IMG/VR virus record: IMGVR_UViG_3300005549_000001
Length of the DNA: 22,315 bases
From: an uncultured virus (IMG/VR IMGVR_UViG_3300005549_000001)
Lineage: Duplodnaviria; Heunggongvirae; Uroviricota; Caudoviricetes
Direction: 5' to 3' (one strand)
This document shows, in pieces, positions 1 to 22,295 of the stretch (position 1 is the first letter of the stretch; the number at the start of each line of letters is the position of its first letter). Below the pieces are notes generated by a model. That model saw nothing but the letters and a program-made list of their open reading frames with translations. It was not told the DNA's origin and made no database searches. The translations under genes were made by a program, and so were the position numbers.

Positions 1-241
1 GCGACGCGAGTTCGACGTCGTACTTGGGCAGCACGAAGTCGGCCTGTGTACTGCCCATTCCGTTGTGCAACATCGCGCGGAGTGCGTTCACCGCGTGGGT
101 CTGTCCTTTATCAGCCTTCTTTATGAGCTTCTTTGCTTTGCGCACCCGTTGAATCTCATCTTCAAGAGAGTTTTCGTAGCTCTCGATCAGGACGAGAGTC
201 TCTTCGAGTATTTGACGTCGGTGCAATTTGTTCCATCGCAT
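1..241 (-). CDS. Hypothetical protein, 3' end beyond the window (MRWNKLHRRQILEETLVLIESYENSLEDEIQRVRKAKK...)
   Basis: Hand translation: ATG at 241, 3 nt after the stop of 245..613, purine-rich SD-like sequence upstream, frame open to position 1. Confidence 0.65.
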   Translation of the reverse strand, partial: MRWNKLHRRQILEETLVLIESYENSLEDEIQRVRKAKKLIKKADKGQTHAVNALRAMLHNGMGSTQADFVLPKYDVELAS

Positions 242-244
242 TGT

Positions 245-613
245 TTACGTCTTCCCCCTGAGCTTGAACCCCCACACGCGAGCGCCCGCGCGGTAGCGCG
301 AGGCTTCCGCTGGTCCTAGGTCGTCGGGCGCGTCGTCGCGCTCCATGAAGCGCAAGGCGTCCGCGGCGGACATGGCCACGACGCGGAGGTACTCGTCGCG
401 CTCGAATGCCGGGCCCTCGGGCAGCGCCGCCTGCGCCTCCTCGAGCGACATGCGGAGCGCGGCGCAGAGTTCCTTGATCTCGTGGTCGCCGAGAAATGTA
501 CCGGCAGTGTTCTTACCATCGCGCAGGTACAAGTAGACGTTGCCCTCGTGATTGGCGACGACCAAGAACTCACCATTCTTTATCGGAATCTTTCGTTCTT
601 CGAATTTTGCCAT
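245..613 (-). CDS. Hypothetical protein (122 aa)
   Basis: Normal globular composition, co-oriented with neighbours. Confidence 0.75.
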   Translation of the reverse strand: MAKFEERKIPIKNGEFLVVANHEGNVYLYLRDGKNTAGTFLGDHEIKELCAALRMSLEEAQAALPEGPAFERDEYLRVVAMSAADALRFMERDDAPDDLGPAEASRYRAGARVWGFKLRGKT

Positions 614-671
614 CTAGTTCACCCGGGCCCGCCCGCGATCCTCCGGTCACGAGCGGGGCCTGGTGTCCTAG
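614..671 (-). other. Long imperfect hairpin filling the intergenic space
   Basis: Minus strand CUAG-GA-CACCAGGCCCCGCUCGUGA pairs with UCGCGGGCGGGCCCGGGUG-AA-CUAG (G-U pairs, few mismatches). GGAGG lies in the loop and the ATG at 613 follows the stem base. Confidence 0.55.
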
Positions 672-675
672 CTTG

Positions 676-1830
676 TTACGCGGCCTTCTTCTCGAGCACG
701 GCTCCCGCGATGCGCTGGAGCTCGATCTTCCGGTCGGCGTCCTCGGTCTGGTTGGCGATCCAGCTGAGCGCATTCGAGAACCGGAGCGCCGTCTTGCCCT
801 CGGGCAGCATGACGTTGTCCGGGCCCTCGAAGGCCTCCTTGGCGCGCTGCGCCTCGCCCTTGCTGAGCAGCTGCCCGACCTTCTTGAACGCCGCGTTCCA
901 GGAGGTCTCCTGAGCGTGGGCCTGCCGCACGGCGTCGAGCCGCGCCTCGATGGCCTTGGGCGCCAGGATGTTGCCGATGACGTCGCGCGTGGCGCTGATC
1001 ATCGTCCTCGTGTCGAGCTCGTAGGTCTGCTGCGAGAAGGTGAGCTCCTCGGGCAGGCGTTTTCCGAGGTGGACCTGCTTGAGCACGCTCTCGCCGATGG
1101 CCGCGTTCAGGCAGAGGAGCCTCAGCACGAACGCGCTCACGCCGTACATTCCCGCGCCGTAGTCGCTGTTCTGCCATGAGAGGCCGAACACCATGAACTC
1201 GCCCGGGACGGGCTCGTGCACGGTCGGGATGATGGCGCGCACGGAGACGCGCACGTCGCTCGCCACGCCCTCGAACGGTACGGCGCCGACCTTCTGCGCC
1301 TCGCCGAGGAAGGCGTCGAGCAGCGGCCTGCTGTCGAGCCGCCGGAACTTGTCGCTCAGGATGCCGCGGGCCTGGCCCCCGACGCTCCGCACGAGGTAGC
1401 GGCCGCCCTGGTGGCGGTAGTGCTGGTCGAGCGTGTACTCGAGCAGCCGGTGCTCCCACGAGGTGCCGTCGGCCTCCGCCTCGGCCGCGTCGAGCCGCCG
1501 CGCGTACGCGGTCGGGACGCCCGCCCGCTCGACCAGCTGCTCGAATGCGTGGTTGTGCAGCAGCCACTGCTGGTCGCCGACCCCAAACGCGAGCCGGCCG
1601 CCGGCGCGACCGAATTGCAGCCGCTCGCCGCGCACGATGTCGTCTCGCGGCACCTCGCTCAGGATGCGCTGCACGACGGCGCTGGAGCGCGCCGCTCCTC
1701 TTCGGACGGCGTCGTCGAGGTTTGCCCGCGCGAGCGCGAGCTTGCTCTCCTCCGGCAGTCCGCCGTGGCCGAGTATGTCGTGCACGACTCGGCCGTCAGT
1801 CTCTATTACGGGCTTCACTTCCAGGGGCAT
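676..1830 (-). CDS. DUF932-family phage/plasmid protein (384 aa)
   Basis: Motifs RGILSDKFRRLD and NSDYGAG...FVLRLLCLNAAI...HLG resemble DUF932 (NS..G....RLVC.NG...H). AAGGAG SD before the ATG. Confidence 0.75.
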   Translation of the reverse strand: MPLEVKPVIETDGRVVHDILGHGGLPEESKLALARANLDDAVRRGAARSSAVVQRILSEVPRDDIVRGERLQFGRAGGRLAFGVGDQQWLLHNHAFEQLVERAGVPTAYARRLDAAEAEADGTSWEHRLLEYTLDQHYRHQGGRYLVRSVGGQARGILSDKFRRLDSRPLLDAFLGEAQKVGAVPFEGVASDVRVSVRAIIPTVHEPVPGEFMVFGLSWQNSDYGAGMYGVSAFVLRLLCLNAAIGESVLKQVHLGKRLPEELTFSQQTYELDTRTMISATRDVIGNILAPKAIEARLDAVRQAHAQETSWNAAFKKVGQLLSKGEAQRAKEAFEGPDNVMLPEGKTALRFSNALSWIANQTEDADRKIELQRIAGAVLEKKAA

Positions 1831-1874
1831 GTGTCAGTCTCCTTTTTGTAGGGGTTCATGTGGTGCACTCCGGG

Positions 1875-1912
1875 GGTATAACACCGGGCTTTACCCAGTG
1901 CAACTTTTTTCT
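1875..1912 (-). promoter_or_regulatory. Sigma70-type promoter for the DUF932-like gene
   Basis: TTGCAC (1903-1898), 17 nt, then TATACC (1880-1875) preceded by TGn, with an upstream A-tract (UP-like). Confidence 0.65.
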
Positions 1913-1931
1913 CTCGACCCCCGCTAGTTTT

Positions 1932-2312
1932 TTATTGCTGCTCTTCGATCCCGTAGTGCGCGCGCTGCAGGGCGCGGGCCTTTTGCTGCAAGCGTCCGAC
2001 TTGTTCGGCGTGTGGGTGAGATAGACCGCCGAACACGTAGCGCGTGTCACGAAAGTAATTCTCGAGGTAGTGCGCGGTTGTGCTCGGTTTCTGGCCCGGG
2101 TAGTAGAACGTGACGAGCAGGATGCCGCCGTGCGGCGCCGTCACCTCGAAGGCCTGATAGGCGTACTTGCCGCCGTCCGCCTCGCGCACGGTCTCGACCG
2201 CGTTCGGGCGCTTGCGGTCCAGCAGAAACTGCACGGCGTGCGAGAGCACGGTGCTTTCTTCTTGGAGTCGAACGCATTCGGCCGCGAGTTCTTCTCTGGT
2301 TTGCTTTTTCAT
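1932..2312 (-). CDS. Hypothetical protein (126 aa)
   Basis: ATGA overlap with 2309..2587; plausible composition. Confidence 0.75.
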   Translation of the reverse strand: MKKQTREELAAECVRLQEESTVLSHAVQFLLDRKRPNAVETVREADGGKYAYQAFEVTAPHGGILLVTFYYPGQKPSTTAHYLENYFRDTRYVFGGLSHPHAEQVGRLQQKARALQRAHYGIEEQQ

Positions 2313-2587
2313 GTTGGATCTTTAGTTTCGAATTGAAGCCCGAAAATTTTGACACCTCCGGGTTGGAAGCTCAGGATCGCGATAGATTCCGCGAGCGCGT
2401 TGAACGCCCGCGCCGACTCACCCTTTTTCTTGCCGCGAAACTGGATGACGTCACCTTTTTCGGCGATGACTTGACCGAGTTCTCGGCCACGTGAGAGGCG
2501 CTCCTCCGGGTCGCGACCGCGCCATTGCTCGATCCACAATGGGACCGCGGCGCTGAGCGCAATTCGCAGTAGCTCTTCATCGGGCAT
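2309..2587 (-). CDS. Hypothetical protein (92 aa)
   Basis: Overlaps both neighbours in an operon-like manner; helical composition. Confidence 0.75.
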   Translation of the reverse strand: MPDEELLRIALSAAVPLWIEQWRGRDPEERLSRGRELGQVIAEKGDVIQFRGKKKGESARAFNALAESIAILSFQPGGVKIFGLQFETKDPT

Positions 2588-3185
2588 GGTTTGGATGCTC
2601 GACTCGTTCGAGTCCGCCGTGCTTGCGGTTGAGCGCGTTCTTGCCTTCGGTCGTGATCTGCGTTGCGCCGTTGCGCGAGCGCTTCAGATAGCCAGCTGCG
2701 GCGAGCCGGTTTAAGTCGGCTTCACTAGGCGTGTCGCGGTAGCGTGCCCATTCGTTGCGTCGACCCATCGAGTTCAATCCGCTGAACGTGTAGAGGATCC
2801 AACGGTCGCGCGGGTCGAGCTCTGTCGGCGCGGGTAAGAGCTTTGCTATGTTCGATGGCGCGAGGTAGAGCGTCGCGAATGTGCGCGGATAGCCCATGGT
2901 CCCCTTGATGACGGCCACGCCGTCGGGGATTGGGTAGTCCGCCGAGTCCAGGTCAACCTGGTTTTGTGGGTTGAACATGTTCGAACCGCCCCACGATCCG
3001 ATGAGTTCTTCGCGTTGGCCGGTCGCGAGCATGATGAGCACGCAGAAGCCGCGCTTGCCGTCACCACCGCATACTTGCGGCGACACTTTCTCGGCCGCGC
3101 GCACTTCGATGTCAGCGGCGCCATAGCTCACGGCGCGCAAGGCGGATTGAATGCTTTCGGGCAGATCTCTGACTTTTGCATACAT
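2577..3185 (-). CDS. Hypothetical phage protein with possible C-terminal winged helix (202 aa, starts MYAKV)
   Basis: Start moved to ATG 3185 after GGGAAGAAAAAACA. C-terminal LNRLAAAGYLKRSRNGATQITTEGK resembles a wHTH wing. Confidence 0.75.
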   Translation of the reverse strand: MYAKVRDLPESIQSALRAVSYGAADIEVRAAEKVSPQVCGGDGKRGFCVLIMLATGQREELIGSWGGSNMFNPQNQVDLDSADYPIPDGVAVIKGTMGYPRTFATLYLAPSNIAKLLPAPTELDPRDRWILYTFSGLNSMGRRNEWARYRDTPSEADLNRLAAAGYLKRSRNGATQITTEGKNALNRKHGGLERVEHPNHAR

Positions 3186-3200
3186 TGTTTTTTCTTCCCG

Positions 3201-3287
3201 TGGTCGCACCGCGTGGGATCGAACCACTGCGACCGCGCACCCTTGGCGGGCCCCGCTATCCTGCGGGCTTCTCGGCGGTCCGGTGCG
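3201..3287 (-). ncRNA. tRNA-like element (87 nt): acceptor stem, T-arm and 3' CCA with a non-canonical middle
   Basis: CGCACCG/CGGUGCG-A-CCA stem; T-arm GUGG-UUCGAUC-CCAC at canonical spacing; no standard D or anticodon arm. Confidence 0.6.
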
Positions 3288-3290
3288 GGA

Positions 3291-3321
3291 GCGGCGCGCG
3301 GAACGCGCCGCGTTTTTTCTT
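3291..3321 (+). terminator. Rho-independent terminator-like hairpin, antisense to the local genes
   Basis: GCGGCGCG-CGGAA-CGCGCCGC followed by GTTTTTTCTT. Confidence 0.45.
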
Positions 3322-3339
3322 CGCGTGTTTCCTCCTAGG

Positions 3340-3555
3340 TTAGAGCTCAGTTTCGAGCGCGGGCATTCCGTGGCCGTTGCTCTTCACCTCGACCACTTCT
3401 CGCCCGACGATTTTGTTGTAGAGCGCTGGAAACTCTTGGGCAAAGCGCTGCCTATCCTCGCTGGTCCAGCGATACGTGACCCAGTCGATGAAGACTTGCA
3501 CCTCGTAGGGTGCGAGATTTCGCGCGTGGTTCGGGATTACTTTGATCGCGTTCAT
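3340..3555 (-). CDS. Hypothetical protein (71 aa, starts MNAIKVIP)
   Basis: ATGA overlap with the stop of 3552..3758. Confidence 0.7.
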   Translation of the reverse strand: MNAIKVIPNHARNLAPYEVQVFIDWVTYRWTSEDRQRFAQEFPALYNKIVGREVVEVKSNGHGMPALETEL

Positions 3556-3758
3556 TCTTGCTCGTCGTCGCGATGTTTCAGCGAGTAGGGTGTGCCGTTC
3601 AGGTGCTCGCGCGCCCAGCGGATCGCGTCCGCTTCTGTCTTGAATGCACCGCGGCCGATCGGATCGAATGCGAGTGGATCGAATTCGCGCTTCGGGTGCC
3701 ACTCAGTGGCGAATTCGGCTGGCACGCTGGGCACGATCACGGTCCAGTAGCCGGCCAT
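3552..3758 (-). CDS. Hypothetical protein (68 aa, starts MAGYWTV)
   Basis: ATG 2 nt after the upstream TGA; coupled to the downstream gene. Confidence 0.7.
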   Translation of the reverse strand: MAGYWTVIVPSVPAEFATEWHPKREFDPLAFDPIGRGAFKTEADAIRWAREHLNGTPYSLKHRDDEQE

Positions 3759-3760
3759 GA

Positions 3761-3916
3761 TCAGAGCTTGCACGCCGCGAGAAAGCGGGCGCGGTTGAAT
3801 CTTGGATTGATGAGCTGAAACGAGGCGCATAGCGTGAGTGCTAGTTCGCGGCGCTCAGCCTCGCTCGAGATCTCCGCAACAACCGCGGCGATCCGCACGA
3901 AGTGTTTTCGGGACAT
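3761..3916 (-). CDS. Small phage protein (51 aa) MSRKHFVRIAAVVAEISSEAERRELALTLCASFQLINPRFNRARFLAACKL
   Basis: Hand-translated, below the ORF-track cutoff. Strong GAGGAG SD. The pattern M.RK.F..IA...NPRF...RFL.AC resembles a recurrent small phage protein family. Confidence 0.8.
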   Translation of the reverse strand: MSRKHFVRIAAVVAEISSEAERRELALTLCASFQLINPRFNRARFLAACKL

Positions 3917-3926
3917 GGTTGCTCCT

Positions 3927-4022
3927 CTCGGGCGAAGTAGGGCAGTCGCTCAGCGGGCCGTGTCACGGGCACGCGCGAGCGCGCGTTATCGCGCTACTTC
4001 TCCCGAGCGGAGTAACCGCTCG
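3927..4022 (-). promoter_or_regulatory. Structured 5' leader of the left operon
   Basis: 13/14-bp stem (3994-4007 with 3927-3940) enclosing short hairpins; competing hairpin 4004-4022. Confidence 0.5.
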
Positions 4023-4476
4023 TCAACCCGCGTAGGTCGCCCTGCTGGCTCGCGTTCGCTAACATGGCGACTTGCCTCGTTTTTTCTTTCTGCCGGTTCC
4101 GCCGGCTCGCATGGGGTATATGCACGGGGCATACCACATGGCTAGGCCCCATGCCGTACGTCTAACCCCGCGAGATCATTCGTTATACTCTGGCTGGAAT
4201 GGTCCGGTGCGAAGCCTTCTTCGCGGCCTGAGGCTGAAAGAGGGTTTTAAGGCTGTTTTTAGTGCCACCTTTGAGTCGCATATGAGCGAAGAAAGCTACG
4301 CGGATCGTCGGGGGCAGCTTACCCCAAGCCTCACCAGGGTCAGCTGGCTAGAGGTCAAGCGGGACTAAAAAAGCGCTTAGAAGCCCTCTAGCCCGGGCCG
4401 GGCCGGACCTTAGCTCGGACAAGGCTAGCTTGTGAGCGGGCCCGCGCCGAGCTATTGTGGCGCAAGTAGCGCGCCC

Positions 4477-4779
4477 ATGGCCCGCCCCCCCACGATTCTG
4501 TCCTACGCTGAGACGTTGCGGCTGGTCTCGCAGTATCCGACCGGCGCGACCGCTACGGAGCTTGCGCGGCGCGCGTGCGGCGCGGCGGAAACACCTAAAA
4601 AGCGGCGCGCTTTTGCCGGTTTCCTTGGCTTACTCGCTGCTCGCGGCGTGATTTCCAAGCGCGGCGGCTTGTTCTTTCCGGCCGTCATTCGGGGCGCGCC
4701 GAGCGCGCCGATGCCGCCCCCTGGTTGGTACCCTACGCCGCACGGGCCGCGCTATTGGGACGGCTTACGCTGGCTTTAA
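4477..4779 (+). CDS. Putative wHTH protein with C-terminal DUF2510-like motif (100 aa)
   Basis: N-terminal GATATELARR...LLAARGVISKRGGLFF is wHTH-like. C-terminal PPGWYPTPHGPRYWDGLRW matches the DUF2510 pattern PxGWYxDP...RYWDG..W. Confidence 0.65.
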   Translation: MARPPTILSYAETLRLVSQYPTGATATELARRACGAAETPKKRRAFAGFLGLLAARGVISKRGGLFFPAVIRGAPSAPMPPPGWYPTPHGPRYWDGLRWL

Positions 4780-4800
4780 TATCCTGCTAGGATACTGCAC

Positions 4801-4986
4801 ATGTCGGAACTGAAAGAGGACGGCGCCGTCCTGGACATGTGCTGCGGTAAGAAGCGTTGCCCCGTTTTTCGCGAAGTTTCCGATGGTTTTGAGCTCTCGG
4901 ACGAGGGCCAAACCGTGAAACTCACGCGCGAGCAGGCCGAAGCTGCCGCGGCGTGGCTCGTCATGCGCCTGCACCGCGACAAGTGA
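4801..4986 (+). CDS. Small Cys-containing hypothetical protein (61 aa; CCGKKRCP)
   Basis: TGnTAGGAT 7 nt before the ATG; GTGA overlap with the next gene. Confidence 0.75.
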   Translation: MSELKEDGAVLDMCCGKKRCPVFREVSDGFELSDEGQTVKLTREQAEAAAAWLVMRLHRDK

Positions 4987-5270
4987 CCGAGCTTTTTGCG
5001 CTCCAAGCGGCCGCGATCACGCTCATTTTCGTGCGCGGCAGCATCTTCGAGCGCGTTCGCACGAGGGGACCCGCGCTCTGGCGAGAGCTCGCGTCGTGTG
5101 CGCTCTGCTCGGGCTTCTGGATCGGCCTCGCGTGGTTCGCGCTCGCGTCGTGGCCGCCGCGCGGTTTTGCAGCGCTTCTCTGGTGTTTTGGCGGCGCCGC
5201 GCTCTCCGCGGCCGCGGCGCTCCTCCTAGTGCGCGTGCTGGACGCGCTCGAGGGCCTGGCGGGTGACTGA
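4983..5270 (+). CDS. DUF1360-like membrane protein (95 aa)
   Basis: Hydrophobic segments and IFERVR...ELASCALCSGFW resemble DUF1360 (ELL.CP.C.G.W). GTG start overlaps the upstream stop. Confidence 0.7.
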   Translation: MTELFALQAAAITLIFVRGSIFERVRTRGPALWRELASCALCSGFWIGLAWFALASWPPRGFAALLWCFGGAALSAAAALLLVRVLDALEGLAGD

Positions 5271-5475
5271 GCTCTGTGCCGCGGGTGACATTGCGAGCTT
5301 CATGGAGCCTGTTTCTTGCCCGCGCTGCGGCTCCGAGCTCGTTAGTGCGCTGCGCGAGGCCGACGGCGCCGTGCGCCTTGTGTGCCGCGGCGTGATTGGC
5401 GGCGTCTCGTGCTTGCACATGTGGCGGTCGAATGTTGAAGCACCGCGTCAGACCGCGTCAAAATCGCGTACTTGA
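5263..5475 (+). CDS. Zinc-ribbon-like small protein (start may be ATG 5302)
   Basis: CPRC...C...CLH pattern. Confidence 0.6.
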   Translation: MTELCAAGDIASFMEPVSCPRCGSELVSALREADGAVRLVCRGVIGGVSCLHMWRSNVEAPRQTASKSRT

Positions 5476-5500
5476 TAAGTCTCGCAATCTAGTAAACACT
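5472..5500 (+). promoter_or_regulatory. Putative promoter for a leaderless recombinase mRNA
   Basis: TTGATA (5472-5477), 17 nt, AACACT (5495-5500), 7 nt, GTG 5508; no SD. Confidence 0.5.
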
Positions 5501-5507
5501 ACCAGAA

Positions 5508-6431
5508 GTGACACTCCCGCTGGTCGTGCCACCGTCCGAGCTCGTCGCCCGAGAGGTGACGGGCATCGCCGATCGATCGGGAGCGAAAAACGACGAGGGT
5601 CTCGTTGATATTTGGGTCGCGTCGCAAACGAGCCCCCATACGCGTCGGGCGTACCGTTTCGACGCTGACGGCCTGCTCGCGTTCCTGGCGCGCCGCGGTC
5701 TACAACTGCGCACCATGAAGGTAGTAGACCTGCAGGGCTGGACGTCTGAGCTGTCAGGTTCGCTCTCGAGCCAGGTTCGTCGCATTGGGGCTATCAAGTC
5801 GCTGCTGACGTTCGGGCAGGAGACCGGCTACTTGACGTTCAACATCGGAAAGGTCGTAAAGCCGCCACCGTTGCCCAACAAGCTCGCCGAGCGCATCTTG
5901 AGTGAGCGCGAGGCGGCCGCGGTGCTCGAGGCCGCGCAGGCCGATCCCATCATCGGCTTCATGTACGCTTCGGGCGCGCGCGTTTCCGAGGCGTGTGCGC
6001 TGCGCTGCGGCGAAGTCCACGAGGGTCCGGACGCTGGTGCGACGGTCACGCTGCACGGTAAGGGAGGTAAGACGCGCCACGTCGTCGTGGCTGCGTCGGT
6101 CGCGACGGTGCTCCGGCGGCTCTGTGAGGGCCAGGGAGCTACGGTGCCCGTCTTTCGCACGCGTACCGGACGTCCGTTGCACCCGGCGAACGTGCACAAA
6201 CTCGTCCGGCGCGCCGCCCGCGCCGCGAACCTGGACAAGAAGGTATCGCCGCACTGGCTGCGGCACGCGCACGCTAGTCACGCGCTCGACCATGGTGCAA
6301 ACCCGGTGCTCGTGCGCGACAGTCTCGGGCACGAATCGCTCGCTACGACGAGCAAGTACACGCACGCCAAGCCCGGGGACGGTTCGAGCCTCTACTTGCC
6401 ACTCCTGCGCGATGAGGATTCGTCGGTGTAG
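5508..6431 (+). CDS. Tyrosine recombinase/integrase (XerC/D-like, 307 aa)
   Basis: Full catalytic set: YASGARVSE (R), GKGGK (K), HWLRH (HxxR), LGH, TTSKY (Y); N-terminal core-binding domain. Confidence 0.95.
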   Translation: MTLPLVVPPSELVAREVTGIADRSGAKNDEGLVDIWVASQTSPHTRRAYRFDADGLLAFLARRGLQLRTMKVVDLQGWTSELSGSLSSQVRRIGAIKSLLTFGQETGYLTFNIGKVVKPPPLPNKLAERILSEREAAAVLEAAQADPIIGFMYASGARVSEACALRCGEVHEGPDAGATVTLHGKGGKTRHVVVAASVATVLRRLCEGQGATVPVFRTRTGRPLHPANVHKLVRRAARAANLDKKVSPHWLRHAHASHALDHGANPVLVRDSLGHESLATTSKYTHAKPGDGSSLYLPLLRDEDSSV

Positions 6432-7508: not shown

Positions 7509-7870
7509 AAAAAGAATGGGGAGCGTGGCGCCTGGAGGCACAGCTGCGCAAGTTCTTCGAGCGCGCGGATCTCTTGCTGCTGCTCACCGTCGGTGAGGGG
7601 CCGAGGGGCTATGCCGTCGTGGCGCTCGAGCTACCAGAGACGGTCGTCAACGGAAATGCTGAGGACGTTTTCGATGCTCACGCTCACAAGCTCGTCGGCA
7701 CCTACGAGACGCTCTCGAAGGCGATGATGGCTGCTGACTCGTTCGGCGAGGCGTGGGTAAAGAGCTACAAGAGCACGCGCATCGAGCAGTGCGATTGCGA
7801 GCTTATCGAAGCGTCCGCGTCCAGTACGCCTCGGCGCGGCAGTCGACGCTCTCCCAGCGCCCGCGCCTGA
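7505..7870 (+). CDS. Hypothetical protein (121 aa, starts MKKEWGAW)
   Basis: GTGA coupling; its 3' end overlaps the convergent gene by 68 nt. Confidence 0.7.
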   Translation: MKKEWGAWRLEAQLRKFFERADLLLLLTVGEGPRGYAVVALELPETVVNGNAEDVFDAHAHKLVGTYETLSKAMMAADSFGEAWVKSYKSTRIEQCDCELIEASASSTPRRGSRRSPSARA

Positions 7871-8009
7871 CGCAGTCGCGCAGGAAGCTGTCCGTCTTGA
7901 GGTGCGATTCGTAGTAGCCGCGCGCCTCCTTCTTGGTCCGGCCGCGGAATACGTGCTCGACGATGGCGTAGCGCTCGTTTTCGTAGATCTTGATGTGCAG
8001 CGCCCACAT
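7803..8009 (-). CDS. Hypothetical protein (68 aa)
   Basis: TGATG overlap with 8009..8365; plausible composition. Confidence 0.7.
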   Translation of the reverse strand: MWALHIKIYENERYAIVEHVFRGRTKKEARGYYESHLKTDSFLRDCVRRGRWESVDCRAEAYWTRTLR

Positions 8010-8365
8010 CAGTCTTCCTCGAGTTCCTCGTCGTCCTCCTCGTCGAGCTCGTCCTCGTCCTCCTCATCGAGCTCGTCCTCGTCTTCGTCGAGATCTTCGT
8101 CGTCCTCGTCGTCGAGCTCGCCGAGACCGAGCTTCGATCGCATCTGCGCGACGCGCGTCGACGCCTCGATGGGGTTGTCGAAGAGCTCGGCCTCGCCGAG
8201 CACGTAGTTGTCTGCGCCGTCCTCGCTCACCACGTAGGGATTCTCCGGCTTGTTGCCGTTCTTGAACACGAAGCCGCGGCAGCCCTTCTCGACGATGACG
8301 ACGCGCTCGTATCCCTCTGGATACGCGACCCACTTGACGTCCCCCGGTCGGTAGCGCTTCGCCAC
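8009..8365 (-). CDS. Protein with a 36-aa acidic tail (118 aa)
   Basis: The tail ELDDEDDEDL...ELEED has 31 D/E in 36 residues; coupled on both sides. Confidence 0.8.
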   Translation of the reverse strand: MAKRYRPGDVKWVAYPEGYERVVIVEKGCRGFVFKNGNKPENPYVVSEDGADNYVLGEAELFDNPIEASTRVAQMRSKLGLGELDDEDDEDLDEDEDELDEEDEDELDEEDDEELEED

Positions 8366-14182: not shown

Positions 14183-14896
14183 GTGCTGCCTCGTCGCCGA
14201 AACCGAAAGAAGGTCTACAAGCAACCTGCTCAGGAGCAGGTTCGCAAGGTGCGGGCTAGGCCTAAGCGTCCCACCAGGGAAGTGTCGTTGAGGGTTACCC
14301 ACGTGTCCTCGCGACCCGTACCGAATGTGTCGCTGTTTTCCTGCGTGCCGTACTCCCCCGATGGAAACCTCGGCGGAGCCTACAACAGGTTCATGGAGCT
14401 CTTGCCGAGCGACGGCTGGGCGTGCTTTCTAGATCACGACGCGATCTGGACGACGAGGTACTGGTACGATCAGATAGCGCGCGCCGTCGCCTCGGCACCT
14501 CAAAACACGGGCGCGATCACGGCCGTCACCAACCGCATCGCGAACCCGAGGCAGCTCGTTTCGGGGTGCCCGAAGGACCACGACATGCTGCGCCACCGCA
14601 GGTTCGGCATGGTGCAGTTCGTCCGGCACGGCGACAAGCTCGTGGAGATCACGAATGCGGAGCCGATGAGCGGCGTCGTCATCATCTTGTCGAAGGCGGC
14701 GTGGCGCGCGTGCGGTCCACTGCCGTCTGGACTGCTCGGCGTTGACAATCACCTGCACGCTGCGTTGAGGAGGGCTGGCAGGCGCGTCTTTCTCATGCCC
14801 GGGCTCTACGTCTACCACTTTTACCGCGGCGACGGGGACAAGTCGCACCTCCGGCGCGGGCGCGCGCTCGAGGAGCCGTCACGCTGGTGGCGATGA
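14183..14896 (+). CDS. GT-A (GT2-like) glycosyltransferase with a basic N-terminal extension
   Basis: PYSPDGNLGGAYN...WACFLDHDA...GVDN...GLYVYH. Start uncertain (14183, 14303 or 14327). Confidence 0.8.
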   Translation: MLPRRRNRKKVYKQPAQEQVRKVRARPKRPTREVSLRVTHVSSRPVPNVSLFSCVPYSPDGNLGGAYNRFMELLPSDGWACFLDHDAIWTTRYWYDQIARAVASAPQNTGAITAVTNRIANPRQLVSGCPKDHDMLRHRRFGMVQFVRHGDKLVEITNAEPMSGVVIILSKAAWRACGPLPSGLLGVDNHLHAALRRAGRRVFLMPGLYVYHFYRGDGDKSHLRRGRALEEPSRWWR

Positions 14897-15510
14897 AGAT
14901 CGTCGTCAACGGCGCGCGATACCGTGACCTGCCGGTCATTGATCCACAGAGGGTAGCGATCGAGGCGGACCTCTCGCGAGCAGACGTCGCCGTGCTGCAC
15001 GAGCTCTGCGCAGGCAGGACCGTCGTAGAATTTGGCTGCGGTGGCTCGACGCTGCTGCTTGCTCGCTTCAGTCGCATCGTGCTCTCGTACGACCACGACG
15101 TGGGCTGGCTCGAGCGCGTCGCCCGCGTGGCTCGTCGTCGAGCTCAGAAGGGCGTGCGCATGTCGCGCATTGTCCTGCAGCACGTGTCCGAGGGCGCCCC
15201 GCCGCCGAAGCTGCCCCGCGTCGACGTGCTCTTCGTCGACGGCGAGCGGAATGCCCGGCACCTCTGGGTAGAGCGCGCTCTCAGGGCCCGCGTTGCCCGC
15301 GTCGTCGTAATCCACGACTCGCGGCGGCCCTCGCCGCTCGCGGACTGCTCGTCGCTCATCACGTGGCCACTCACCAGGAGCATCGACAGGGTACTCTACC
15401 ACTACAAAAACTCGAACCACGTCGTCGTGTGCCTCCGCGACGAGTCCGTTCGGTACGTGGACTGGAATAAGGCTGAACCGCGGCGCCGATTGCCGCACTT
15501 GCACGTGTAG
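14893..15510 (+). CDS. Class I SAM-dependent methyltransferase
   Basis: VVEFGCGGST (motif I), VDVLFVDG, VIHD; ATGA overlap. Confidence 0.85.
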   Translation: MKIVVNGARYRDLPVIDPQRVAIEADLSRADVAVLHELCAGRTVVEFGCGGSTLLLARFSRIVLSYDHDVGWLERVARVARRRAQKGVRMSRIVLQHVSEGAPPPKLPRVDVLFVDGERNARHLWVERALRARVARVVVIHDSRRPSPLADCSSLITWPLTRSIDRVLYHYKNSNHVVVCLRDESVRYVDWNKAEPRRRLPHLHV

Positions 15511-15525
15511 GGTTAGCATAGGGAA

Positions 15526-16191
15526 ATGAAGCGCACGCGGGAGCAGTGGGTGTCGCTGTGCAGGTGCGTGAGCTCTGGATTCATCCCGAGCACGGGAAGG
15601 GCGACGCTCTACGACAGCGGCGTCGAGTACGTGAAAACGTTTCTCGAGCCCTCGGGTGCGCTCGGCGGCAACGATCGCGTCGTCGACGTCGGCTGCGGCA
15701 ATGGCCGACTCGCCATGGGACTGACCGAGCGGCGCGGCGTGCAGTACTTGGGACTTGACGTCGTCCGCGAGTCGGTAGACTTCTGCGCTGCCGCGTTCGA
15801 GGGCTTGCCTGGCTTCAAGTTCGCGCACCTTGACGTTCGCAACTCCCGGTATAACCCCGCCGGCAAGCAGGACGGCGCGCGGATGACGCTGCCGCTGCCC
15901 GACGGTTGGGCGACGCTCGTCGTCGCCTCGAGCCTCTTCACGCACATTGCAAACCCCCTCGTGACGAAGCGCTACCTCTCCGAGATGCGGCGCGTGCTCG
16001 AGCCCGGCGGCAAGATGCTGACGACGTGGTTTGCCAACCCGCCTAACAGGCTCTCGGGCAACGAGGCGCGCGTCGTGCGTCGGCAATCTGATATTGAGGC
16101 GCTGCTAGAACCTGACGAGGTCGTCTGGCAACACGGCGGCGAAACGACTGAGCACCACGACCAGTGGATGCTTCTCACAAGGGTGGCGTGA
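15526..16191 (+). CDS. Class I SAM-dependent methyltransferase
   Basis: VVDVGCGNGR, YLGLDV, SSLFTH, RVLEPGG. Confidence 0.9.
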   Translation: MKRTREQWVSLCRCVSSGFIPSTGRATLYDSGVEYVKTFLEPSGALGGNDRVVDVGCGNGRLAMGLTERRGVQYLGLDVVRESVDFCAAAFEGLPGFKFAHLDVRNSRYNPAGKQDGARMTLPLPDGWATLVVASSLFTHIANPLVTKRYLSEMRRVLEPGGKMLTTWFANPPNRLSGNEARVVRRQSDIEALLEPDEVVWQHGGETTEHHDQWMLLTRVA

Positions 16192-16769
16192 GCCTCGTCT
16201 CGGTCATCATTCCGACGATCGGGCGCCCGTCCCTCAAGAACACCGTCGAGTCCGTGCGGGCTCAGACACACCAGCCCGTTGAGGTGATCGAGGTAGTCGA
16301 CGCGCGCAGGCGCGGCGCAGCTTGGGCGCGCAACGAAGGAGCTCGCAGAGCTCACGGCGAGTTCCTCTTTTTCTGCGACGACGACGTCCGGCTGGAGTCC
16401 CGGGCACTCGAGATGCTCGTCGCGGCTCTCAGGCATTTGCCGAGCGCCTCGTACTCGTACGGCTGGTACGTGATGGGCCCCCACGTCATCAGCCGCGTCA
16501 AGTTTGATGCGGTCAGGCTCCGCAAGAAGAACTTCATTTCGTCGATGGCTCTTGTTCGCGCCTCGCACTTCATCGGCTTCGACGAGAAGCTGCCGCGCTG
16601 GCAGGACTGGGATCTTTGGCTCCGAATGCTGCGTTATGGTCGCGTTGGCGCATTTGTGGACGCCAAGATCTTTGAGACGACATTTGATCCGAAGGGGATC
16701 AGCGGCAACGCGCGCGCTCTAGAAGTGGCCCGGGGCGTCTTGCTCAAGCGGCACGGGATTCAGCGATAG
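16188..16769 (+). CDS. GT2 glycosyltransferase
   Basis: VSVIIPT, GAAWARNEG, EFLFFCDDD, FDEKL...QDWDLWLR; GTGA overlap. Confidence 0.9.
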   Translation: MSLVSVIIPTIGRPSLKNTVESVRAQTHQPVEVIEVVDARRRGAAWARNEGARRAHGEFLFFCDDDVRLESRALEMLVAALRHLPSASYSYGWYVMGPHVISRVKFDAVRLRKKNFISSMALVRASHFIGFDEKLPRWQDWDLWLRMLRYGRVGAFVDAKIFETTFDPKGISGNARALEVARGVLLKRHGIQR

Positions 16770-17907
16770 AGCGCGTCCAATTGGCGAGGCTACGACCGAC
16801 GTGCGCCGCTCGGTGCCGCTCCCAGCCCGGCCAGGTCCGCGTGCCGCACGCGTGCTGGCCGCGGGCCGTCTGCATCGCCTCGACGAGGTCGTCGAGGTCG
16901 TAGTCGATGTAGGTCGCCCCCTCACCCCACGGGTAGCTAAGATCTGCTGCGATCAGGCCAGTGGCCGATATACAAATGTCTACTTCCGGATCGAGGAAGT
17001 CCTCGGGGCCGCCGCTCGCCGTGCAGATGAGGCGCCGCCCCGCGAGCTTGGCTGCCCAGGCACCGAGCTCGAGGCCCTCGCCGCGGCTCGCGCTGACGTA
17101 GACGTCTCCGTCGGCGTGCACCCCGAGCATCTCCTCGCGGGAGAGTCGGCCCTCGACGATGCATACATCTTCCCACACGTTCGAACCGGTCCAACCATTT
17201 CGATAGACGTCGGGCTGGCCGAGCTCGTAGTCGACGATGCGCCAGGGGCTCGGGTACTCAGCGATGTGCTGGATGGGGCTCGTCTTCAGCGTGAGCTTGG
17301 ACTCACCCGGGGCGAAGGCTCGCAGGAAGGCGCGGATGATGTTGTCCGGGGTCTTGCGCGGCTCAAATCTGCCGATGTTGTAGAAGTGCTTCGGTTCGCG
17401 AACAGGCTTGTCGAGCTCGAGGTGCGGGTCGTCGTCGAAGAATGGGTAAGGGATCAGCGCGACGTTGTGAACGCCGGCCTCGCGGAGCACGAGCTCGTTC
17501 ATGCGGCACTGCACCCACACGCCCGAGAGCTGGTTCATCTTCTCGACGAGCGCCGGCTCGATGTAGCGCCTCTCGAACACGCAGTAGAAGGCCTGCGGTT
17601 CCTTGTTCGTCATCATTGCGTCGAGCACGCCGAGCTTGTCCGAGGACAGCAGCGCGCAGGAGAAGACGTGCAGGTCGACGCCGCGGAGCTGCTGCTCCGT
17701 CGTCAGCATGGACAGGGGGTGCTCCCCCGTGAGTGCAGGAAGGAGCTCGTTGAATAGCTCCTCGTCGAGACCGACGGCGTTTGGTCGCTGCCAGTCGCGG
17801 AGCAGCACGTCGAGACCGCCGAGCTGCATGGCCCGGGCGTAGGCCCTCGACGCGATGGACCAGCCGTCGGCTGGGTGCATCCACGGCGTATTGAAGAGGA
17901 CCTTCAA
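16744..17907 (-). CDS. GT4-like (GT-B) glycosyltransferase
   Basis: NIGRFEPRK, DVYVSASRGEG, GGPEDF; TTG start abuts the upstream stop. Confidence 0.85.
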   Translation of the reverse strand: MKVLFNTPWMHPADGWSIASRAYARAMQLGGLDVLLRDWQRPNAVGLDEELFNELLPALTGEHPLSMLTTEQQLRGVDLHVFSCALLSSDKLGVLDAMMTNKEPQAFYCVFERRYIEPALVEKMNQLSGVWVQCRMNELVLREAGVHNVALIPYPFFDDDPHLELDKPVREPKHFYNIGRFEPRKTPDNIIRAFLRAFAPGESKLTLKTSPIQHIAEYPSPWRIVDYELGQPDVYRNGWTGSNVWEDVCIVEGRLSREEMLGVHADGDVYVSASRGEGLELGAWAAKLAGRRLICTASGGPEDFLDPEVDICISATGLIAADLSYPWGEGATYIDYDLDDLVEAMQTARGQHACGTRTWPGWERHRAAHVGRSLANWTRSIAESRAA

Positions 17908-18352: not shown

Positions 18353-18838
18353 TCACCCTACGCACGGCCGGAAGATGCTGAGCGCCGCGCTGTTCAGGAG
18401 CACGCCCTCGAGCGCGCCGTTTTGCACTACGAAGAGTTGGACGAGATTTCCTGCGCCAAGAGCGAGAGATGTAGCCACGCTCTGTGTTGAAGGCGCCGGG
18501 CCCAGTGCGTGGACGAAGGCTGCCCTTTGGACGCCGTTCACGTAGATGAACGTCGTTGCGAAGGCTCCGGGATCGCCCGTCGCACCGAAGTTCATCGTGA
18601 AGTTGACGGAGTAAACGCCGAGCGCGCCAGCCACCACGCCGTCGTTCGGCAGGTCGGCGAAGCTCGGAGGAGTCTCGAAGTCGACCGTGTCCATGTCCAC
18701 GTCACTGAGCCCACCGTTTAGGAGAGCCTGTGGCGTCGACGAGCTCACGCCCGCGCCAGTCTCTAAGCAGGGTGTGCCTACAGGTCCACAAGGCTGAGCC
18801 ACGGTGCTGCAGATGGTATTCGTGATGGGTGTGGGCAT
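18353..18838 (-). CDS. C1q/TNF-like protein with N-terminal TNTIC
   Basis: VDMDTVDFE, GVYSVNF, IYVNG, LALGAGNLVQL. Confidence 0.75.
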   Translation of the reverse strand: MPTPITNTICSTVAQPCGPVGTPCLETGAGVSSSTPQALLNGGLSDVDMDTVDFETPPSFADLPNDGVVAGALGVYSVNFTMNFGATGDPGAFATTFIYVNGVQRAAFVHALGPAPSTQSVATSLALGAGNLVQLFVVQNGALEGVLLNSAALSIFRPCVG

Positions 18839-20962: not shown

Positions 20963-21787
20963 TTAGACGAGCCCGGGGCCGTAGCGGGCCGTCACGTAGG
21001 CGTCGAGCTCGGCGAGTTCTTGAACGGTCGGCTGCCTGTCGAAGATTGCGAAATCACAGACCTCAATGTTGGCGAAGGAGGACAAGTTGGCCGCGGCGCC
21101 GAGAACGAAGTTTGCAGCAGGATCGGTGTTACCGGCGTTCGCAGTCGTTTGCGTCGCGCCACCGACCTTGGTGTAGTCGCTGACGCTGCCCGAGAAGTAA
21201 ATCTCGAGCCGCTTGTAAACGTTGAGCGTGAGCCCGCTGTTCGGGTTTACGCCAAAAGCGCCAGCTCCGGCGTCGTTTCTCATTGCAATGACGGGCGTCC
21301 CGCCGGGCATGTGCTGCAGCACTGCAAGCGAGCTATTGTTGCCGACACCGGCTCCCCACAATCTGTCGCCGCCGGTCCAGGTCACCTGGCGCAGCACGGC
21401 CCAGTAGAAGGTGCGAGTCGTGGCAGGCGCGGGCAGGTCGAGCAGGGCGTTGGCGACGTCGTCGTTGACCCCGTCGAAGAGGACGGATGGCGTGGCGTTA
21501 GGTCCGCCGGTCGCGTTGAACGTCGGCTGGTTTGCCCCGACGGCTTGGATCAGATCGAAGCCGTTCCCGCTTCCGTCGGTCCACGAGCTGACGGTGCCCC
21601 CGTTGAGTACCAGGAGGTCGCCGCGCCACCAGGCGACCGTACTGGCGCCCATGATGCTCGCGGGTGTTATCGGAGCGGGCGGAGGCACCGGGGGAATCGG
21701 CGTCACCACAATTCTGTTGCAGATCGTCTCGCAGGACTGCGCGCAGGACGTGCGACAGGGTCCGTCGCAGTTAATTTGACAAATCAT
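20963..21787 (-). CDS. LamG/concanavalin-A-like protein with a Cys-rich N-terminus ending CETIC (274 aa)
   Basis: AWWRGD...VSSWTDGSGNG...Q.....QP...FDGVND...YVTARYG, a typical phage LamG-like pattern; GAGGA SD; Pro-rich linker. Confidence 0.8.
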   Translation of the reverse strand: MICQINCDGPCRTSCAQSCETICNRIVVTPIPPVPPPAPITPASIMGASTVAWWRGDLLVLNGGTVSSWTDGSGNGFDLIQAVGANQPTFNATGGPNATPSVLFDGVNDDVANALLDLPAPATTRTFYWAVLRQVTWTGGDRLWGAGVGNNSSLAVLQHMPGGTPVIAMRNDAGAGAFGVNPNSGLTLNVYKRLEIYFSGSVSDYTKVGGATQTTANAGNTDPAANFVLGAAANLSSFANIEVCDFAIFDRQPTVQELAELDAYVTARYGPGLV

Positions 21788-21957
21788 TGTCCTCGTTTCC
21801 TCTGCTCCGCGAGCTTCTTGTCGGCGTCCCTCTTGATCTCGTCGAGCATCTGCTCGGCCTCGCCGTACTTGCCGACTTGCTTTTCTATCCCCTTGACGAC
21901 GCTCGAGCGTATCGATCTCCCCGACGGGAGCCTCTGCGGCAACTTGTCTTCGGGCAT
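21784..21957 (-). CDS. Small charged protein (57 aa, MPEDKLPQRL...EQRKRGQ)
   Basis: Hand-translated; ATGA overlap with the 21787 start; fills the gap. Confidence 0.65.
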   Translation of the reverse strand: MPEDKLPQRLPSGRSIRSSVVKGIEKQVGKYGEAEQMLDEIKRDADKKLAEQRKRGQ

Positions 21958-21968
21958 GCGGCTTGATC

Positions 21969-22295
21969 TTATCTGCGCTGGAGTAGCGCTGCAACGGTGC
22001 CCTTGAGCTCGCCGATCTTGTCGATGAGCCGCTCGCGCCGGTCGCTGTCGAGGTTCGTGTAAGCTGTAAATTCTTCGACCGTGAGATAGTCCTTCAGGGC
22101 GTGTTCCACGATCTCGCGCACGCGCTCGTCGGAGAGGGTCGGCAGCCTCTTGTCCTCGAGCTTCTTCATTTCCTCCCGGAGAAGCTTTAAGTCCCTCTTG
22201 TTTTCACGACTTACGCGCGCCTTCGTCGTGAAGTACGTGCTCACGGCCGAGCCCAGGGCGACTCCGACAAGGGTCGCTATTTGGGCGGCGTCCAT
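21969..22295 (-). CDS. N-terminal TM plus coiled-coil protein (108 aa; phage membrane or lysis-associated type)
   Basis: One N-terminal hydrophobic helix then charged helices; TACACT 6 nt before the ATG. Confidence 0.7.
   Translation of the reverse strand: MDAAQIATLVGVALGSAVSTYFTTKARVSRENKRDLKLLREEMKKLEDKRLPTLSDERVREIVEHALKDYLTVEEFTAYTNLDSDRRERLIDKIGELKGTVAALLQRR

Follow-up and report, generated by a model that had tools for sequence, protein, structure and literature searches.

The window (the whole 22,315-nt stretch of DNA analysed, from an uncultured soil phage) contains an 87-nt element on the minus strand that carries the top half of a tRNA. The best reading, held at a probability of about 0.4, is that the element may be an RNase P and 3'-end punctuation site like the t-elements of plant mitochondria. 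The element is real, does not decode, is probably tRNA-derived and has a location that suits RNA processing; on the sequences compared, it is an orphan.

Anatomy of the element

Read from the sequence, the element consists of an acceptor stem, a non-tRNA core, a T arm, the discriminator A73 and CCA, in that order. RNA position p corresponds to window coordinate 3288-p. The parts are as follows.

3201..3287, minus strand: tRNA-top-half element, 87 nt (sequence; the minimum free energy (MFE) fold is the one given in the initial annotation)
3281..3287, minus strand: 5' strand of the acceptor stem, CGCACCG (sequence, fold, pair probabilities)
3231..3280, minus strand: core in place of the D and anticodon arms (fold, pair probabilities)
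3212..3228, minus strand: T arm of 4 bp plus an A.G mismatch, with loop UUCGAUC (sequence, fold)
3201..3211, minus strand: 3' strand of the acceptor stem, CGGUGCG, followed by discriminator A (3204) and encoded CCA (3203-3201) (sequence)

The two acceptor strands, CGCACCG (3287-3281) and CGGUGCG (3211-3205), form seven out of seven Watson-Crick pairs. The T arm abuts the acceptor 3' strand on its 5' side. It reads GUGG / UUCGAUC / CCAC (3227-3213), with A and G left unpaired (A.G mismatch, 3228/3212) at the fifth position of the stem. The T loop has the conserved tRNA features G53, UUCRA and C61; within the arm, GGTTCGATCCC at 3225-3215 matches the motif GGTTCRANYCC. The core is built on a 6-bp stem, GACCGC (3280-3275) / GCGGUC (3236-3231), which stacks directly on the acceptor stem and closes a junction with two hairpins, CCCGC-AGGAUA-GCGGG (3267-3252) and GCCC-GCCAA-GGGU (3251-3239). 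The initial annotation had described this acceptor stem, discriminator A, CCA, T loop, core stem and hairpins, and had called the whole a non-canonical tRNA mimic, one in which just the acceptor/T-arm half is kept; the parts are all present, and sequence and fold show the description to be correct. The placement 15 nt before a start codon is also borne out, as the gC start codon is an ATG at 3185, 15 nt past the end of the element.

The unconstrained MFE structure of the 87 nt is exactly the structure described above (-41.4 kcal/mol), and the MFE fold retains it when a 186-nt context is used. Acceptor-stem pairs have probabilities of 0.58-1.0 (0.58 applies to the last pair only); the corresponding ranges are 0.93-1.0 in the core stem and 0.96-0.99 in the T stem. 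The folding energy is ordinary for a G+C content of 74% (z = -1.58; 14 of 200 shuffles are equally stable), and the core taken by itself is not significantly stable (z -1.6; 34 of 500 shuffles match it). The signal therefore lies in the tRNA-specific features rather than in stability.

An alternative stem, GGUCGCA/UGCGACC, had also been pointed out. It does exist, with seven Watson-Crick pairs between RNA positions 54-60 and 80-86, but it carries little weight: the best fold that contains it has -36.6 kcal/mol, which is 4.8 kcal/mol weaker, and its pair probability at equilibrium is 0.002. A translational switch, in which this stem competes with the acceptor stem and thereby controls gC translation, was proposed at the outset on the strength of the 7-bp alternative. 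This idea fares poorly and is extremely improbable given the energy difference and the low occupancy. In addition, neither fold covers the gC start or ribosome-binding region, and both stems stem from a quasi-repeat within the element, so that the second is not independent evidence.

tRNA detection and chance likeness

ARAGORN finds no tRNA and no tmRNA in the whole window. Nine sets of options, including introns, mitochondrial models and tmRNA mode, give nothing credible; at the 80% threshold the program forces a poor tRNA-Leu(aag) from 3279, using another, mismatched acceptor. A canonical, intron-bearing or mitochondrial-type armless tRNA was rejected on the results of these nine sets. Rfam 15 has no match in the whole window at gathering score. 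On 3150-3350 (201 nt), with E values up to 10 allowed, there are five chance-level matches (E 0.38-9.9), none of them to a tRNA, tmRNA, Y RNA or C4 family. The fold contains no D arm, no anticodon arm and no hairpin with a 7-nt loop and U33. Since the detectors are negative and there is no hairpin having such a loop, the element is not a decoding tRNA. The initial annotation had considered that a canonical tRNA might be called here; neither ARAGORN nor Rfam makes such a call.

The likelihood of a chance match was estimated by pattern scanning. The pattern comprised a T arm (G-TTCRA-NN-C, at least 4 of 5 stem pairs) and, after it, a 7-nt segment able to pair with a 5' strand located 40-119 nt upstream of the T stem. 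The null set consisted of 400 first-order Markov copies of the 22-kb window, scanned on both strands. The pattern occurs 0.15 times per window when G-U pairs are allowed and 0.01 times when only Watson-Crick pairs are allowed; when CCA is also required, none of the 400 windows has a match. A chance origin of the combined acceptor stem, T arm and CCA is unlikely. A slightly widened scan of 427,668 bases (the window and 84 loci that carry relatives of gC) returns three true tRNAs, the element and two weak extras; the element is found with two alternative 5' strands. The explanation that the whole likeness is a coincidence in G+C-rich intergenic DNA is barely credible. It could draw on the unremarkable energy z-score and on the very large number of windows scanned overall, among which a few coincidences are still expected, but it is opposed by the empty simulated set and by a real tRNA which shares the acceptor stem (see below).

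Genomic setting

The window is phage-like. Most of its ORFs are unknown; the others include a tyrosine recombinase, glycosyltransferases and methyltransferases, and a match to a virion structural protein. Its sequence is present in rhizosphere and soil metagenome runs, with no RNA run among those listed. Every credible gene in 1-3916 is on the minus strand. The element occupies a 154-nt gap between gB2 and gC, on the same strand as both, in a tightly packed phage early operon; gC is followed by further overlapping genes downstream. The main features around the element are listed here.

5508..6431, plus strand: XerC/XerD-like tyrosine recombinase, 2.2 kb from the element; scores below the curated XerC/XerD cut-offs
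3924..4041, minus strand: conserved non-coding stretch upstream of gA, 87.5% identical to the closest relative (L002)
3916-3761, minus strand: gA, operon gene
3758-3552, minus strand: gB1, operon gene
3340..3555, minus strand: gB2, 71 aa, start overlaps the gB1 stop; no family found
3312..3327, minus strand: 16-nt direct repeat, upstream copy, with the 11-nt core GAAGAAAAAAC at 3322-3312 (sequence)
3291..3311, unstranded: GC hairpin of 8 G-C pairs, 3 nt upstream of the element (fold, terminator search)
3187..3202, minus strand: direct repeat, downstream copy, 15/16 identical (sequence)
2577..3185, minus strand: gC, 202 aa, phage-only family with 66 homologues

Searches of Pfam, PHROGs, NCBIfam, PDB profiles and a protein atlas give nothing usable on the function of gC. 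Profile searches recognise no defence or anti-defence gene among the neighbours of the element. A promoter-like pair, TTGACG...GATAAC, can be seen by eye in 3924-4041; the promoter scan did not call this pair. A perfect AGGAGG lies at 3336-3331 (minus strand), right after the gB2 stop, with no ATG, GTG or TTG in the next ~90 nt.

The 16-nt direct repeat brackets the hairpin and the element, with its copies 125 nt apart. The downstream copy overlaps the last two bases of the CCA and forms the gC leader. The core of the repeat has three matches in the window at up to one mismatch, a number reached by none of 100 shuffles; the third copy (10/11) is at 4089-4079. The repeat could be an insertion scar, a product of microhomology recombination or a repeated leader motif.

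Together with a T tract that extends to ~3320, the hairpin at 3291-3311 reads as an intrinsic terminator on the plus strand only; on the minus (operon) strand, the hairpin is followed by UCCCGCACC. A strong predicted plus-strand terminator (3291-3320) sits amid minus-strand genes. Temperate phages have antisense RNAs such as OOP and the sar RNAs, and the functional unit here might be a comparable plus-strand RNA of ~125 nt, ending at the terminator and opposing the gC leader; the likeness to a tRNA would then be a by-product. The presence of this terminator inside an otherwise minus-strand operon fits the proposal, as does the recombinase gene, which suggests a temperate lifestyle. In addition, the plus-strand RNA of 3186-3325 folds better than the minus strand (z -2.2; 2 of 200 shuffles are as stable; MFE frequency 0.58). 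However, no sigma-70-like promoter is found on the plus strand, either by scan in 2400-5600 or by eye in 3060-3200. It would also follow that the minus strand has its T-loop consensus, A73 and CCA by coincidence, which the chance scan makes unlikely; the antisense explanation is quite improbable.

Other parts of the window contain further features. At 662-614 (minus strand) there is a 49-nt hairpin-containing intergenic stretch just before a start codon, which is 88% identical to L002 1286-1332 and precedes different genes in the window and in L002; it looks like a movable regulatory cassette, judged by its sequence and placement. Homology between the core of the element and this hairpin was considered and rejected, as 76 of 2000 shuffles score equally and other sites in the window score higher. 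A run of periodic repeats of 9-15 nt, rich in GTC, CTC and GAG, is located at 8012-8129 in the minus-strand ORFs 7765-8067 and 8009-8365. A cluster of glycosyltransferase- and methyltransferase-like genes spans 14183-16769 (plus strand) and 16744-17907 (minus strand); it adjoins a BclA_C-like protein (18353-18838) and the virion structural protein match (20963-21994).

Relatives and conservation

The 66 homologues of gC come from a large protein collection. At the nucleotide level there are 84 gC loci, 44 in metagenome contigs and 40 in viral contigs of 8-497 kb; no relative of gC is found in 185,579 species genomes. No viral relative is found with gB2 as query.

The closest relative is L002, in which gC is 86% identical at the amino acid level. 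Nucleotide identity is 81% downstream from the gC start codon; upstream from it, the two sequences are unrelated, and L002 has no tRNA-like sequence upstream of gC. The non-homologous stretch comprises 738 nt in the window (3924-3186) and 1455 nt in L002 (1045-2500). Since these unrelated stretches lie between conserved flanks, the element is read as part of a swapped module that consists of gA, gB1, gB2, the hairpin and the element. The left edge of the module is the 3924-4041 stretch and the right edge is the gC start codon.

The 84 gC loci contain no look-alike of the element: neither the module scan nor a covariance model of its sequence and fold finds one. The element scores 118.5 bits against its own model; there is no other match below E 0.028, and the only other matches below E = 1 are two tRNAs that had been selected by pattern, the tRNA-Met(CAT) copies treated under possible origins. 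The exact 25-mer at the 3' end of the element is absent from 2.9 million viral contigs. Among 50,697 phage records there is no match to window 2500-4000, and 3190-3330 gives only chance-level pieces (E 0.4-5).

Contigs from four sequencing runs were compared with the window. The element is covered without a single difference by two of these, X7 (2900-3452) and X9 (3020-3653); X10 reaches only to 3221, and X11 does not cover the element. Because the copies from other samples are letter-identical, no covariation can be read from them. Structural conservation had been put forward as a test of the element. None is found: the element is missing from L002 and from all 84 loci, and there are no variants from which covariation could be drawn. 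On these comparisons the element is an orphan singleton, with no comparative support.

True tRNAs do occur near gC, with five ARAGORN calls in the 84 loci. One of them is a tRNA-Ile(TAT) in L034 (11-85), 43 nt upstream of the gC homologue. L014 begins, at 1-60, in the apparent 3' two-thirds of a tRNA (anticodon loop UUUCUAA), ~650 nt before the gC homologue. L019 has, on the plus strand, four copies of an intergenic cassette of ~110 nt between small genes, at 893, 1897, 2391 and 3086. Each cassette starts with a T-arm-like hairpin (6-bp stem, loop TTCGAT[C/T]), from which conserved blocks extend as far as the next start codon; the cassette may serve in regulation or processing. The L019 hairpin upstream of gC was rejected as a look-alike of the element as it has only 6 pairs and no acceptor partner. 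A minihelix upstream of gC in L040 was also rejected, as folding gives it no support.

Possible origins

The origin of the element was searched for with a degenerate pattern (the same acceptor strands, A73 and T loop) over 2.9 million viral contigs. There are two matches, both of them the same genuine tRNA-Met(CAT), in jumbo-phage contigs (L085/L086). This tRNA has an acceptor stem and A73 identical to those of the element, and the two can be aligned via the acceptor 5' strand, GGUC, the T arm and the acceptor 3' strand. In the middle, an 8/9 match links the element to the junction of the D stem and anticodon stem; this match is marginal (~0.04 by chance, according to the author's own arithmetic and not a tool output). 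The contexts of the element and of the tRNA-Met(CAT) share no genes. Given this shared stem in a genuine phage tRNA, the element probably derives from a tRNA, the support being for its top half. The likeness does not show descent from that very tRNA-Met(CAT) gene.

In the main rival to the punctuation reading, the element may be an inert remnant: a phage tRNA gene, possibly of the Met(CAT) type, whose middle was scrambled by one or two rearrangements; it would ride in the swapped-in module with no selected role, and incidental cutting by RNase P would be possible. Several observations are consistent with this: the element is a singleton which is missing in the nearest relative and located at the edge of a replaced module; phages of the gC family carry tRNAs near gC (5 in 84 loci); the acceptor stem is that of a real phage tRNA, accompanied by the 8/9 junction match; and the bracketing 16-nt direct repeat resembles an insertion or recombination scar. 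Even decay, however, would not spare seven acceptor pairs, the T loop, A73 and CCA while erasing two arms. The core is neatly paired as well, and the internal match is only marginal. A remnant is possible, though on balance unlikely.

Another potential source is a host tRNA. The initial annotation had raised identity to a host tRNA 3' end (an attP relic); among 185,579 bacterial and archaeal species genomes, none contains an exact copy of the 22-mer that runs from the T loop to A73. On the attP reading, the core would be a copy of a host tRNA gene's 3' end and would serve the nearby tyrosine recombinase; in its favour, the tRNA 3'-half sequence is found 2.2 kb from a tyrosine recombinase gene. 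In such a core the matching 5' acceptor strand would be superfluous. The site is inside an early operon, 15 nt from a start codon, instead of beside the integrase gene; the recombinase is XerC/XerD-like; and gC relatives are found on viral and metagenome contigs only, with none in species genomes. An attP origin is very improbable.

Comparison with known RNAs

The closest parallel is with the t-elements of plant mitochondria. These are described in a passage of Forner et al. 2007 (PMC1920247) as non-canonical cloverleaves with GGTTCRANYCC that are found at mRNA ends. On that description, t-elements resemble the phage element in having the T-arm motif and an acceptor stem, and in being located in a longer transcript beside a coding region. 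They are organellar, and their ends have been mapped as mRNA ends made by RNase P and RNase Z; the phage element, in contrast, is known from sequence alone. The phage element also differs in having an encoded CCA and in the 50-nt foreign core which replaces the two lower arms.

The element shares with canonical tRNA (RF00005) a GGUC remnant of the variable loop, the T arm and a length in the long-tRNA range. Unlike canonical tRNA, it lacks the D and anticodon arms together with the 7-nt anticodon loop, and its T stem has four pairs plus the A.G mismatch.

The tRNA-like domain of tmRNA is similar in that it has an acceptor stem and T arm, with a helix replacing the anticodon stem. tmRNA is about 350 nt long. 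The element, by comparison, has 87 nt, no tag reading frame, no pseudoknots and C3-G70 in place of G3:U70. A tmRNA was rejected for this reason, and also as ARAGORN in tmRNA mode (-m) is negative even at the 70% threshold and Rfam gives no match. tmRNA is an RNase P substrate according to excerpts of PMC4919913 and PMC4919922.

Three other groups of small RNAs offer partial parallels. In an operon transcript of the temperate phages P1 and P7, the C4 antisense RNA precursor is reportedly released by host RNase P, in work attributed to Hartmann and colleagues in 1995. The likeness is that of a small RNA embedded in a phage operon transcript. A C4-type antisense RNA was rejected here: Rfam gives no C4 match, and no target is found near any start codon in the window. 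Targets for the element loops were searched for by duplex prediction against 36 start regions and by complement scan; the longest perfect complement has 9 nt, and such complements are scattered.

Phage T4 encodes RNAC and RNAD within a tRNA cluster, and both RNAs are conserved in the T4-like phages. The present element is alone between protein genes. Like the element, RNAC and RNAD are small phage RNAs of unknown role, and passages in PMC3014915 and PMC9697503 associate them with tRNA genes.

The third parallel is with bacterial Y RNAs. The 5' and 3' ends of a Y RNA are in its Ro-binding stem and not in an acceptor stem. The element has no Rfam Y RNA match, and no Ro/TROVE protein is found among 45 ORFs scanned. 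What the two have in common is partial tRNA mimicry in a non-coding RNA, as described for the tRNA-like domain of Y RNA in part of PMC4201824.

A candidate RNA processing site

The punctuation reading can be set out as a sequence of steps. The element would be transcribed within the phage early polycistronic message, between gB2 and gC. Host RNase P would most likely cut 5' of C3287, between 3288 and 3287; a cut is expected since bacterial RNase P recognises just such a combination of acceptor/T-arm stack and 3' ACCA. Trimming by host 3'-end enzymes would follow, down to the CCA at 3201. The first product would be an upstream gB2 message whose 3' end, 3 nt beyond the GC hairpin (3311-3291), could be protected by that hairpin. 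The second would be a free, CCA-ended RNA of 87 nt, and the third a gC message with a leader of at most ~15 nt. Such processing may benefit the phage.

The element offers a coaxial stack of 7 + 4(5) bp, a consensus T loop and ACCA. A passage of PMC4919913 agrees with the initial annotation that RNase P recognises the acceptor/T-arm half. It states that in bacterial RNase P the D-loop appears dispensable, that the T-loop or a similar loop is required, that the enzyme pairs its L15 loop or P15 hairpin with the 3' end of the tRNA, and that the elbow is measured. Substrates of RNase P include bacterial mRNAs and phage regulatory RNAs, according to an excerpt of PMC4919922. RNase E cuts 1-3 nt after an encoded CCA, according to an excerpt of PMC2190699.

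The initial annotation had suggested an mRNA processing signal among other roles. This suggestion is anatomically plausible and is now the best reading; what is missing is conservation, as the element is absent from L002 and from 84 of 84 loci. In its favour, the element fits the definition of a t-element given in part of PMC1920247 (a GGTTCRANYCC fold, intergenic, on the operon strand), and the GC hairpin is just 3 nt upstream. Against it, position -1 is a C and the leader from -4 onward is locked in the hairpin. A C at -1 and a hairpin-locked leader do not make a preferred RNase P leader. After a cut near the CCA, the gC leader would also be very short and its ribosome site, of the GGAAG type, no more than weak. 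Above all, as far as the compared sequences go, the absent conservation counts against the punctuation reading. A non-exhaustive search found no paper on tRNA-half punctuation in phage operons.

The released RNA might also act in trans. A tRNA look-alike of this kind would bind, or titrate away, one of the host factors that recognise tRNAs by their acceptor/T-arm half; examples are EF-Tu, a synthetase, the CCA-adding enzyme and a defence enzyme directed at tRNA ends. The element has the whole acceptor/T half and an encoded CCA, and the position in the early operon fits genes for host take-over. However, the element has no anticodon-like 7-nt loop and so cannot decoy anticodon nucleases; it has no G3:U70 or other nameable minihelix identity mark; neither L002 nor the 84 loci conserve it; and no defence or anti-defence neighbour can be recognised. 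A trans-acting role of this kind is improbable. The specific suggestion of a decoy for tRNA-targeting defences finds no support, given the lack of an anticodon-like loop and of an identified defence neighbour.

The two roles can be combined. A remodelled tRNA skeleton would then serve as punctuation of the early message, and the excised 87-nt RNA would persist as a non-decoding look-alike, possibly occupying host factors; this fuller scenario is rather unlikely.

If the scenario is true, the element would be a phage counterpart of the mitochondrial t-elements, with an added core domain. As a singleton, this copy is weak evidence for the wider idea; its value is as a candidate RNase P substrate. 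If phages routinely use a tRNA top half to have their long messages cut by host RNase P, the punctuation rule of organelles would extend to the viruses of bacteria. Annotation would then have a simple signature by which to recognise operon processing sites, as well as those small phage RNAs which escape standard tRNA and Rfam searches.
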